A program made the position numbers and the translations under genes. Shown here piece by piece: positions 60,897 through 61,430 of a DNA stretch of 64,000 nucleotides; the stretch's first letter is position 1, and every line of letters starts with the position of its first letter. Source of the stretch: an uncultured Rhizobiaceae bacterium (GTDB lineage Bacteria; Pseudomonadota; Alphaproteobacteria; Rickettsiales; UBA1997); the NCBI GenBank assembly GCA_964493475.1, contig CAZBNS010000001.1, positions 9,099-73,098 of the forward strand, read 5' to 3'. Under the pieces are notes generated by a model. That model did not search any database. It was not told where the DNA came from and saw nothing but the letters and a program-made list of their open reading frames with translations.

Positions 60897-60924
60897 TTGC
60901 AAAATAATTTCTATTTTATAATAC
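60897..60924 (+). promoter_or_regulatory. Promoter of RNA copy B
   Basis: TTGCAA (60897-902), 16 nt, TAATAC(T) (60919-24). Confidence 0.45.
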
Positions 60925-60928
60925 TCAT

Positions 60929-61127
60929 ATTGCCTACGGGCAAAGTTGACGGCTTCAAAAACCGAAAGCATATTTAATTTAGTTCGCAGGTCTTTGTTGT
61001 ATTTACAGCTCTGTAAATATAGCGGAGGCTTGCGGTTATAATAGGCTATTTTATAGCTTAAAAGGCTGTAAGGGCTGATATGCTCAGTTTTTTGAACCTC
61101 CGCACTTTCTTAAGTGCGATTTTTATT
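60929..61127 (+). ncRNA. Candidate structured RNA / cis-regulatory leader, copy B
   Basis: Elements are the 5' hairpin TTGCC-TACG-GGCAA (UNCG-type loop), a variable hairpin at 61000-61019, a closing helix GCGGAGG (61022-28)/CCTCCGC (61097-103) around two hairpins, and a terminator CGCACTT-TCTT-AAGTGCG + T-run (61101-61127). Confidence 0.5.
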
Positions 61128-61148
61128 AATTAAAAAATGAGGTCTAAA

Positions 61149-61430
61149 ATGGACGAACTGATGAAAAATGATTTACTCAAGAGAATTTATCTTTTAGAAA
61201 AAGATAAAAACTTTGAAAAGAAAATCAAAATTAATAATGCAATTAATGAAGAATTAATTGATGTAATAAGAAACATATTACGATATTATATTGATAATAA
61301 AATAATAGTAAGAGGAGATGTAATTGGTTTAAGAAATGTACTTAATTATATAATAAAGACATGTAGAGTTAAATATGGTGAAGAGAAGAAATTTGAAAGG
61401 TTAACCAAAGTTATTAATAGAATTAAGTGA
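61149..61430 (+). CDS. Small helical protein, paralog B (93 aa from the second ATG)
   Basis: GAGG (61139-42) lies 6 nt upstream of ATG 61149. The N-terminal MDELMKNDLLK(K/R)IYLLEK is shared with paralog A, and the rest is ~45% identical by eye. Confidence 0.55.
   Translation: MDELMKNDLLKRIYLLEKDKNFEKKIKINNAINEELIDVIRNILRYYIDNKIIVRGDVIGLRNVLNYIIKTCRVKYGEEKKFERLTKVINRIK

Follow-up and report, generated by a model that had tools for sequence, protein, structure and literature searches.

A structured leader RNA of about 200 nucleotides precedes a family of small basic proteins in uncultured Rickettsiales

Organization of the locus

The DNA analysed here is a stretch of 64,000 nucleotides (nt) from an uncultured Rickettsiales bacterium (lineage UBA1997, deposited as Rhizobiaceae; assembly GCA_964493475.1, contig CAZBNS010000001.1, positions 9,099 to 73,098), which is referred to as the window. 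It contains two copies of a module in which a promoter, a structured RNA of about 198 nt, an intrinsic terminator and an open reading frame (ORF) for a protein of about 93 amino acids follow each other. Copy A occupies 54433-54972 on the minus strand and copy B 60897-61430 on the plus strand. Both had been reported in a first-pass annotation of the sequence, and reading and aligning the two loci gave base-for-base agreement with that report. The ~200-nt RNA is a genuine strand-specific structured RNA. We tentatively interpret the element as a dedicated promoter-proximal leader of the attenuator type that controls small basic three-helix proteins.

In copy B, the promoter as read from the sequence (60897-60925) consists of a -35 box TTGCAA (60897-60902), a 17-nt spacer and a -10 box AATACT (60920-60925); it shows 8 of 12 matches and was not picked up by a simple promoter scan. 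The structured RNA (198 nt, 60930-61127) ends in an intrinsic terminator identified by a terminator scan at 61101-61127, in which the stem-loop CGCACUU-UCUU-AAGUGCG is followed by AUUUUUAUU and the stem is kept in all copies. The Shine-Dalgarno (SD) sequence GAGG is located at 61139-61142, and the ORF extends from an ATG at 61149 to a stop codon at 61428-61430, encoding 93 amino acids (P0001). On the minus strand, copy A comprises a promoter (54944-54972) with TTGCAA at 54972-54967, a 17-nt spacer and AATACT at 54949-54944, a structured RNA of 198 nt (54742-54939), a terminator at 54777-54751 with a U-run to 54742, a GAGG at 54730-54727, and an ORF of 95 amino acids between the ATG at 54720 and the stop codon at 54433-54435. 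A TTGCAA-N17-AATAyT box, or a TTGACA-type alternative, is found at a fixed distance from the 5' hairpin of the RNA in the remaining copies.

Copies A and B are 85% identical in the RNA, with 91% in its 3' half, and 48% identical in the protein, which bears out the earlier impression that the RNA is the better conserved part. Core words of 17-21 nt are exclusive to the module copies within the window (expectation 0.00-0.09), and together with the fold z-scores and the covariance model (CM) scores given below this demonstrates that the copies did not arise by chance. The distance from the U-run to the SD-ATG is 19-26 nt in nearly every copy. Because the terminator directly follows the closing helix of the RNA and precedes the SD-ATG by only this distance, a promoter serving the ORF alone could not be accommodated. 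The module thus combines a promoter-proximal leader with an intrinsic terminator upstream of the ORF and lacks an intervening promoter, so that the attenuator or expression-platform layout proposed in the first-pass annotation fits. Numbered from the RNA start, the conserved unit spans about -50 to +570 and corresponds to a module of ~600 bp.

A truncated third copy is present at 54228-54288 on the plus strand (nhmmer E = 0.007; CM 16.6 bits) and retains a degenerate TTAACA-17-AATAAT promoter and RNA nt 1-28, i.e. helix P0 and the start of helix S1. It carries a 'GUGAUGG' variant that is known from other genomes, is convergent with copy A and faces the 3' end of the copy A ORF, against which it could produce an antisense transcript.

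Structure and covariation of the RNA

The fold of the RNA was derived from RNAalifold on 19 copies and from single-sequence minimum free energy (MFE) predictions, which agree with each other. A handful of metagenome-assembled genomes (MAGs) and metagenome contigs, all from one narrow lineage, supplied every homologue. The RNA starts with P0, a UNCG-capped hairpin (60931-60942 in copy B, 54938-54927 in copy A), followed by S1, a 3-bp stem of the type nGG/CCn (60950-60952/60962-60964; 54919-54917/54907-54905). The loop of S1 is the 5' strand of P1, and the loop lengths fit an H-type pseudoknot. In P1, UUCAAAAAC is paired with GUUUUUUGAA ~130 nt downstream (60955-60961/61089-61095; 54914-54908/54789-54783). 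P2 is formed by VR1, a segment of 7-8 nt just after P1, and VR2, which is located ~100 nt apart (60967-60974/61077-61084; 54902-54895/54801-54794). P3 is a long G·U-rich hairpin with a variable tip, in which GCGGAGGCUUGCGG folds back on the upstream strand (60980-61038; 54889-54839), and is followed by the hairpin P4 (61042-61060; 54835-54818) and by P5, a small GGCU/GGCU hairpin (61064-61076; 54814-54802). In this topology, the 5' third of the RNA pairs with the 3' third via P1 and P2, which enclose P3, P4 and P5, and the terminator comes directly after. The fold is considerably more stable than that of shuffled sequences (copy A, MFE -78.4 kcal/mol, z -7.5; copy B, MFE -74.7 kcal/mol, z -7.3), and the sense strand scores 206.9 bits (copy B) and 197.1 bits (copy A) with the CM, compared with 7.5 bits for the antisense strand. 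The many G·U pairs and this gap between sense and antisense scores indicate that it is the sense strand that folds, as RNA.

Covariation among homologues had been named beforehand as a test of the structured RNA, and it was found throughout the fold. Among 19 aligned copies, 97.5% of the cells are paired and both-sided changes occur in 20 pairs (101 cells); the corresponding values are 96.2%, 22 pairs and 127 cells for 24 copies, and 97.0%, 22 pairs and 128 cells for a CM alignment of 27 copies. The observed covariation was matched by none of 500 shuffles, and slid controls were ~40% paired. Covarying positions are distributed over P1 (3-4), P2 (5-6), P4 (six of seven pairs) and S1, where two of the three positions covary (U-A, C-G and G-C; G-C to A-U in copy L018).

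The first-pass annotation had proposed a fold from copies A and B and four differences between them that keep hairpins intact. A structured RNA with compensatory variation is confirmed, the hairpins at 54856-54871 and 61000-61019 are exactly as claimed, and all four differences are real. The main fold, though, is the covarying minimum-energy arrangement of P1, P2 and P3 described above and not the proposed one. The third difference, a CUGA-loop-UCAG hairpin, is more plausibly read as a strand of a long-range pairing, because its 'loop' is VR2, which pairs with VR1 ~100 nt upstream as P2. The CUGA/UCAG helix and a second proposed helix, GCGGAGG/CCUCCGC, are both invariant, so that neither draws support from covariation, and they compete with P1, P2 and P3; they are viable only as an alternative antiterminator state. 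As the main fold, they were therefore ruled out.

The sequence of P2 differs in almost every copy (AUACGAU/AUCGUAU in copy A, AGCAUAU/AUAUGCU in copy B, ACUCUAU/AUAGAGU in L002). Short complementary segments, within one transcript or between transcripts of a locus, decide on termination or translation in the immunity RNAs c4 of P1/P7 and CI of P4 and in Sib/Ibs, where variant-specific pairing sequences confer specificity on each variant. The RNA described here might likewise be a self-addressed antisense system, in which the 5' third regulates the 3' third and the VR1:VR2 address prevents cross-regulation among paralogues. The open form would show both contact sites as hairpin loops facing single strands, and the contacts would nucleate from loop to linear strand, with the S1 loop meeting the 3' strand of P1 and VR1 meeting the VR2 loop. 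P2 is perfectly complementary within each copy of a genome even though almost every copy differs. Mismatches are limited to four copies, namely the pseudogene L009a, L025 on a 2.5-kb metagenome contig, and L004 and L016a, which are located at contig ends and are probably assembly chimeras. Nevertheless, P4 and the apical part of P3 vary at least as much as P2, and a lack of sequence constraint would suffice to explain the divergence of P2. In addition, L005 and L009b from one genome have identical VR sequences. Different from the c4 and CI systems, the complementary segments belong to one RNA and are nested within a common fold, the module is not set among phage sequences and Rfam C4 gives no match. 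We consider this explanation improbable.

The RNA copies share 73-92% identity (80-95% in the 3' half), and ~60 nt are invariant, although the first search pattern itself imposed the invariance of 20 nt in most copies. The invariant positions include a TATAAT hexamer (GGTTATAAT; 61038-61043 and 54839-54834) at the base of P3 and the P3/P4 junction, which is not preceded by a conserved -35 box, and a GGAGG in the 3' strand of P3. These could be junction motifs, mimics of a sigma-70 or ribosome binding site, or coincidence. A hammerhead-like CUGA core was dismissed as the bases that follow it vary.

The ~60 invariant nt exceed what pairing requires, which is among the arguments for a stand-alone trans-acting small RNA, a sponge or a mimic that, for example, titrates a factor via single-stranded UUAUAAU or GGAGG, while the ORF is merely co-located and expressed by leakage. 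The default product would indeed be a discrete and very stable RNA of ~200 nt, protected by its 5' hairpin and ended by a terminator of its own, and multiple copies would raise its dosage. This explanation does not account for the SD-ATG at a fixed short distance in essentially every copy, for the purifying selection acting on the ORFs, or for the first ~30 nt of the ORF, which are conserved together with the RNA. Conserved complementarity of the leader to its own mRNA, ORF or translation start, the only targets searched, was not detected, and by eye the start sequence does not covary with P1. A function in trans as the sole role of the RNA is therefore distinctly unlikely in our view.

At the gathering threshold, Rfam 15 (4227 families) recognised only three tRNAs in the window, and at E <= 10 nothing was found on the RNA between 54300 and 61600 except SpF10 on the antisense strand of the terminator, with 26 bits against a gathering threshold of 60. 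The families covered include riboswitches, 6S RNA, tmRNA, SRP RNA, RNase P, T-boxes, C4, the abiF motif, leaders of ribosomal-protein genes and small RNAs of alphaproteobacteria. Literature searches did not retrieve any description of the RNA or the protein. The Rfam search thus agrees with the first-pass annotation, which could place the RNA in no known class. The RNA family is previously undescribed, although conceptually it belongs to known kinds, i.e. attenuator leaders or RNA-protein modules.

Distribution of the module

The two copies on which the first-pass annotation was based turned out to be members of a dispersed family. Relatives of the small protein are scarce, with seven found among 5.8 billion clustered proteins and 11 in a profile search of 1.84 billion representatives. 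The gene of one of them, P0007, lies on a contig of a Rickettsiales MAG and is likewise preceded by the RNA. In a genome collection, a 20-nt core of the RNA was matched 17 times, on 16 contigs belonging to three Rickettsiales MAGs (11 in STC_2, five in SMAG_U15884 and one in E20_bin249), one of these contigs being the P0007 contig. A metagenome scan added three contigs, and nhmmer two more divergent copies that lack the search word. The covariance model R1 finally detected 27 copies in the collected sequences, 13 of them in the single MAG STC_2, and in the window only copies A, B and the remnant.

The modules are flanked by unrelated housekeeping genes, and the ORF of ~93 codons is their only conserved neighbour. 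In one case, the same leader, terminator and SD spacing precede a different gene: at 4468-5026 (minus strand) of L002, from the E20_bin249 MAG, the leader is followed by an unrelated ORF of 118 amino acids with a signal peptide. This ORF has no Pfam match; we take it to contain staphylococcal-nuclease-like motifs (DGDT ... KYGRLL), recognised by eye only.

The first-pass annotation had also considered a recently duplicated DNA element with random differences, of which the conserved segment would simply be the end. More generally, the segment might terminate a repeated or mobile element and have no function as RNA. The copies are dispersed and numerous, palindromic repeat elements are found nearby, and several short-read contigs stop inside the module, as is typical of dispersed repeats; the matches to yajQ, for example, are short Logan contigs that end in the repeat. 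The compensatory changes in 22 pairs, unmatched in all 500 shuffles, effectively refute this explanation. Furthermore, the G·U-rich helices and the CM scores are strand-specific, and promoter and terminator are kept in register. Neither a transposase gene nor terminal inverted repeats nor flank homology was found around the module, and blastn against phages and plasmids gave no match. Viral contigs scanned with two RNA cores and the protein yielded nothing, or five chance 17-mer matches without flanking homology. A DNA element devoid of RNA function is thus extremely improbable.

Some copies are rearranged or incomplete. In L020:1-290 (minus strand), only the 3' half of the RNA is present and the 5' half is replaced by a GC-rich palindrome; immediately behind its terminator, a second module begins with promoter and 5' end, so that the two are arranged in tandem with no ORF between them. 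In L019:3195-3352, an insertion of ~150 bp splits the module ORF and leaves the upstream leader intact; with its terminal inverted repeats TTAATTAGCTATTAGTTGAAAC and GTTCCAACTAATAGTTAATTAA, the insertion resembles a miniature inverted-repeat transposable element. The Logan contigs L021-L024 contain genes of the window or module ORFs and have ends inside the RNA. L023 derives from the same sample as a contig with an identical yajQ and holds a further module (P0015), so that more than two full copies are probable in the organism of the window or a close relative.

The encoded protein

Nearly every RNA copy is followed by an ORF of 88-108 amino acids that belongs to one superfamily with MDELMKN-, MEELIEK- and MMTEKLKEL-type branches. 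The ratio of non-synonymous to synonymous substitutions (dN/dS) of the ORFs is 0.10-0.29, and synonymous sites are saturated (proportion of synonymous differences, pS, 0.6-0.75). As the RNA is conserved despite this saturation, both the protein and the RNA are under purifying selection, and the RNA more strongly so. The link between the RNA and the protein family is almost one to one in both directions.

The proteins are basic, with isoelectric points (pI) of 8.8-9.7. An AlphaFold 2 model based on a 16-sequence alignment (predicted local distance difference test, pLDDT, 90.7) consists of a long helix (residues 3-51) and a helical hairpin; an earlier model from eight sequences had been poor (pLDDT 66). 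No significant similarity was found in Pfam, PADLOC, PHROGs or a PDB profile search, nor by Foldseek with the two AlphaFold 2 models, the better of which had no match at E < 0.9. According to the model, the protein is an orphan basic protein with three helices, in accordance with the terminator and small helical protein without recognisable domain noted in the first-pass annotation.

The layout of the module had earlier been likened to type III toxin-antitoxin loci. In ToxIN/AbiF-type loci, a promoter, a structured RNA, a terminator and a protein gene follow each other, with ToxI accompanying ToxN and RCd22 accompanying AbiF (PMC12373285). The type III systems ToxIN, CptIN and TenpIN and the abiF-motif/AbiF pair share with the module described here the gene order, the terminator between RNA and protein gene (PMC12373285), a pseudoknotted RNA and an expected excess of RNA over protein. 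In a type III-like pair, the abundant terminated RNA would neutralise or partner the protein made by read-through, and the terminator would only set the RNA:protein ratio. The almost one-to-one linkage of the two families, the basic protein and the 13 copies of one MAG dispersed between housekeeping genes, as would be typical of selfish addiction modules, could be explained in this way, and a fold that terminates by default would not require a switch.

The resemblance is confined to the architecture. The RNA is devoid of the 34-45-nt tandem direct repeats of type III systems, and no tandem array was detected inside either RNA (Tandem Repeats Finder, minimum score 30). The three-helix protein of 93 amino acids is unlike ToxN/AbiQ, CptN, TenpN and Abi_2, and no profile or fold match to ToxN, AbiQ, Abi_2, HEPN or other defence or toxin proteins was obtained; Rfam gave no match to the abiF RNA motif and Pfam none to Abi_2. 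Judged by its sequence, with neither tandem repeats nor a ToxN/AbiQ, CptN or TenpN toxin, the module would not be assigned to the type III toxin-antitoxin family. The variable helices of the RNA do not track the protein subfamily, one type of P4 occurring with three protein types, and thus give no sign of a cognate co-evolution. Moreover, the gene behind the leader in L002 is an unrelated one, the copies show the age and purifying selection of old elements and not a recent spread, and a basic pI is common in AT-rich genomes. We regard a type III-like pair as unlikely, albeit worth keeping in mind.

Attenuation as the favoured mechanism

The arrangement of the module suggests that the leader probably gates the expression of the downstream protein. 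We infer the following sequence of events. A sigma-70-type promoter would start transcription 2-4 nt before P0, and the nascent RNA would collapse into the very stable closed fold described above, the T state, comprising P1, P2, the S1 pseudoknot, P3, which sequesters GCGGAGGCUUGCGG, P4 and P5. As this state leaves CGCACU free, the terminator would form, and transcription would by default stop ~25 nt before the ORF, releasing an RNA of ~200 nt. The ORF would be expressed only by read-through, either as a constitutive leak or via a second fold. In the latter, the invariant GCGGAGGCUUGCGGUU would pair with GGCUGUAAG and CCUCCGC and thereby remove the 5' strand of the terminator. This would correspond to a trp-like 1:2 / 2:3 / 3:4 logic in which the 5' third acts as anti-antiterminator. 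The tipping factor might be the encoded basic protein itself, as in the case of L20, or a signal read by the invariant core of the 3' half; both are guesses. The leader in front of the unrelated ORF in L002 speaks for regulation in cis for which the usual protein is not needed. Of this scheme, the comparison of copies establishes the T-state fold and the terminator, as well as the coding nature of the ORF, its close tie to the RNA and the purifying selection on the RNA; the switching, the effector and the direction of regulation are deduced.

The alternative fold is an unproven candidate antiterminator deduced from sequence complementarity. In copy B, its strands would be GCGGAGG (61022-61028) with CCUCCGC (61097-61103) and CUUGCGGUU (61029-61037) with GGCUGUAAG (61064-61072). 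When the pairing GCGGAGG:CCUCCGC is forced, the helix is lengthened as CUUGCGGUU pairs with GGCUGUAAG across P4, and it would take the CGC of the terminator stem. The resulting three-way fold is 99.5-100% pairable in all 24 aligned copies. The few changes are one-sided and keep the pairing: G·U becomes A-U, C-G becomes U·G, and CU is exchanged for UC in a manner compatible with either fold. Invariance of both strands extends to the divergent copies retrieved independently of the search pattern, which is expected of sequences with two partners.

Several observations weigh against such a switch and against the attenuator interpretation as a whole. The antiterminator helices do not show any compensatory change in 24 copies. 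The T state is favoured over the alternative fold by 15-18 kcal/mol (15.4 kcal/mol in copy B, with the alternative pairing forced) and by 10-13 kcal/mol even in a transcript that has not yet reached the terminator, and P3, as a local hairpin, should form first. With the T state favoured and P3 preceding it, the antiterminator would need a strong external input; the stability gap implies that termination is the default and that any switch depends on such an input. Ribosome-mediated attenuation by a leader peptide was ruled out as unlikely, since the 5' half of the leader lacks a conserved ORF. Finally, unlike metabolite riboswitches, the RNA is tied almost exclusively to one orphan family, which an RNA-protein partnership would fit equally well. 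Attenuation is our tentative choice, with a chance that we put at somewhat below even.

Comparison with known regulatory RNAs

Leaders that depend on a protein for transcription attenuation are well known, including those of the PyrR and TRAP types. The 200-nt infC leader of B. subtilis is a terminator/antiterminator switch that is controlled by its own small basic product L20 (PMC1865079). Like the infC-rpmI-rplT leader, the RNA described here is ~200 nt long, is located between the promoter and the first gene, and contains an intrinsic terminator with a mutually exclusive upstream pairing, which in the present case is only a candidate. The product is likewise small, basic and of RNA-binding type and could feed back on its own leader. 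The two leaders are not related by sequence or in Rfam, and the protein is an orphan and not a ribosomal protein. Moreover, the module is repeated many times per genome, and the terminating fold is strongly favoured without a factor.

Terminator riboswitches share with the RNA the conserved junction or core nucleotides, peripheral helices that vary and covary, and a closing helix that abuts the terminator, with complementary invariant segments that could form an antiterminator. They differ in that the regulon is here essentially a single orphan protein family without a metabolic clue to a ligand, and in that the aptamer-like fold takes in the entire 5' third, which is the least conserved part of the RNA. 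A retron msr-msd, an IS110 bridge RNA and an omega RNA were excluded because the adjacent genes do not include a reverse transcriptase, a recombinase or TnpB/IscB.

A broader possibility, which we see as rather unlikely, combines several of these elements. The module could be a new self-contained RNA-protein unit consisting of a two-state RNA, a copy-addressed antisense 5' third and a new small RNA-binding protein. Each genome would then have an orthogonal set of a dozen feedback switches insulated from each other, or the module would represent a new class of RNA-antitoxin system without repeats.

Flanking sequences and neighbouring genes

Most module ORFs are followed by related GC-rich palindromes. 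In the window, a palindrome CCCCTTTGTCAA...TTGATAAAGGGG, read from the sequence, is located 3' of ORF B (61436-61476, plus strand), and a nested one, AGCCCCCCTTTGTC ... GACAAAGGGGAGCT with the inner repeat GACATTTCCTCTC/GAGAGGAAATGTC, 3' of ORF A (54309-54420). A palindrome family based on AGCTCCCCTTTGTC...GACAAAGGGGAGCT is shared by the window, L016 (3' of the ORF) and L023:345-390, and occurs upstream of the promoter in L008 and L013. Other genomes contain different GC-rich hairpins, GTGTTGGGTC...GACCCAACAC, in the same position. These palindromes may serve as terminators of the ORFs or may be small palindromic mobile elements.

Between a 260-amino acid orphan ORF (58803-59585, minus strand) and yajQ, an AT-rich non-coding gap of 670 nt is found (59586-60254). 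It contains GC-rich palindromes at ~59640-59710, such as GTCATTTCCGCGAAGGCGGAAAT, and matches to FtrB that are only sub-threshold. Beside nagB, at 49569-53052 on the minus strand, are three genes which by eye we presume to encode a Mur-ligase-like protein (516 amino acids), an alpha/beta-hydrolase-like protein (242 amino acids) and a D-Ala-D-Ala-ligase/ATP-grasp-like protein (399 amino acids).

Concluding remarks

The RNA combines five helices and a pseudoknot, is absent from Rfam and displays 22 compensatory pairs in just 27 copies. To our knowledge, new bacterial RNAs of ~200 nt with such covariation are now rare. The module breaks the short-read assemblies of the genomes that contain it. 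Its trp-like three-pairing architecture, which is cleanly laid out in the sequence, provides a testable model of how expression of the small protein would be controlled. Restricted to a few uncultured Rickettsiales and present as 13 paralogous modules in one MAG, the RNA is the conserved leader of a complete family of orphan proteins. Such an association points to a regulatory or RNA-protein system that is specific to this lineage and goes entirely unnoticed by annotation pipelines.

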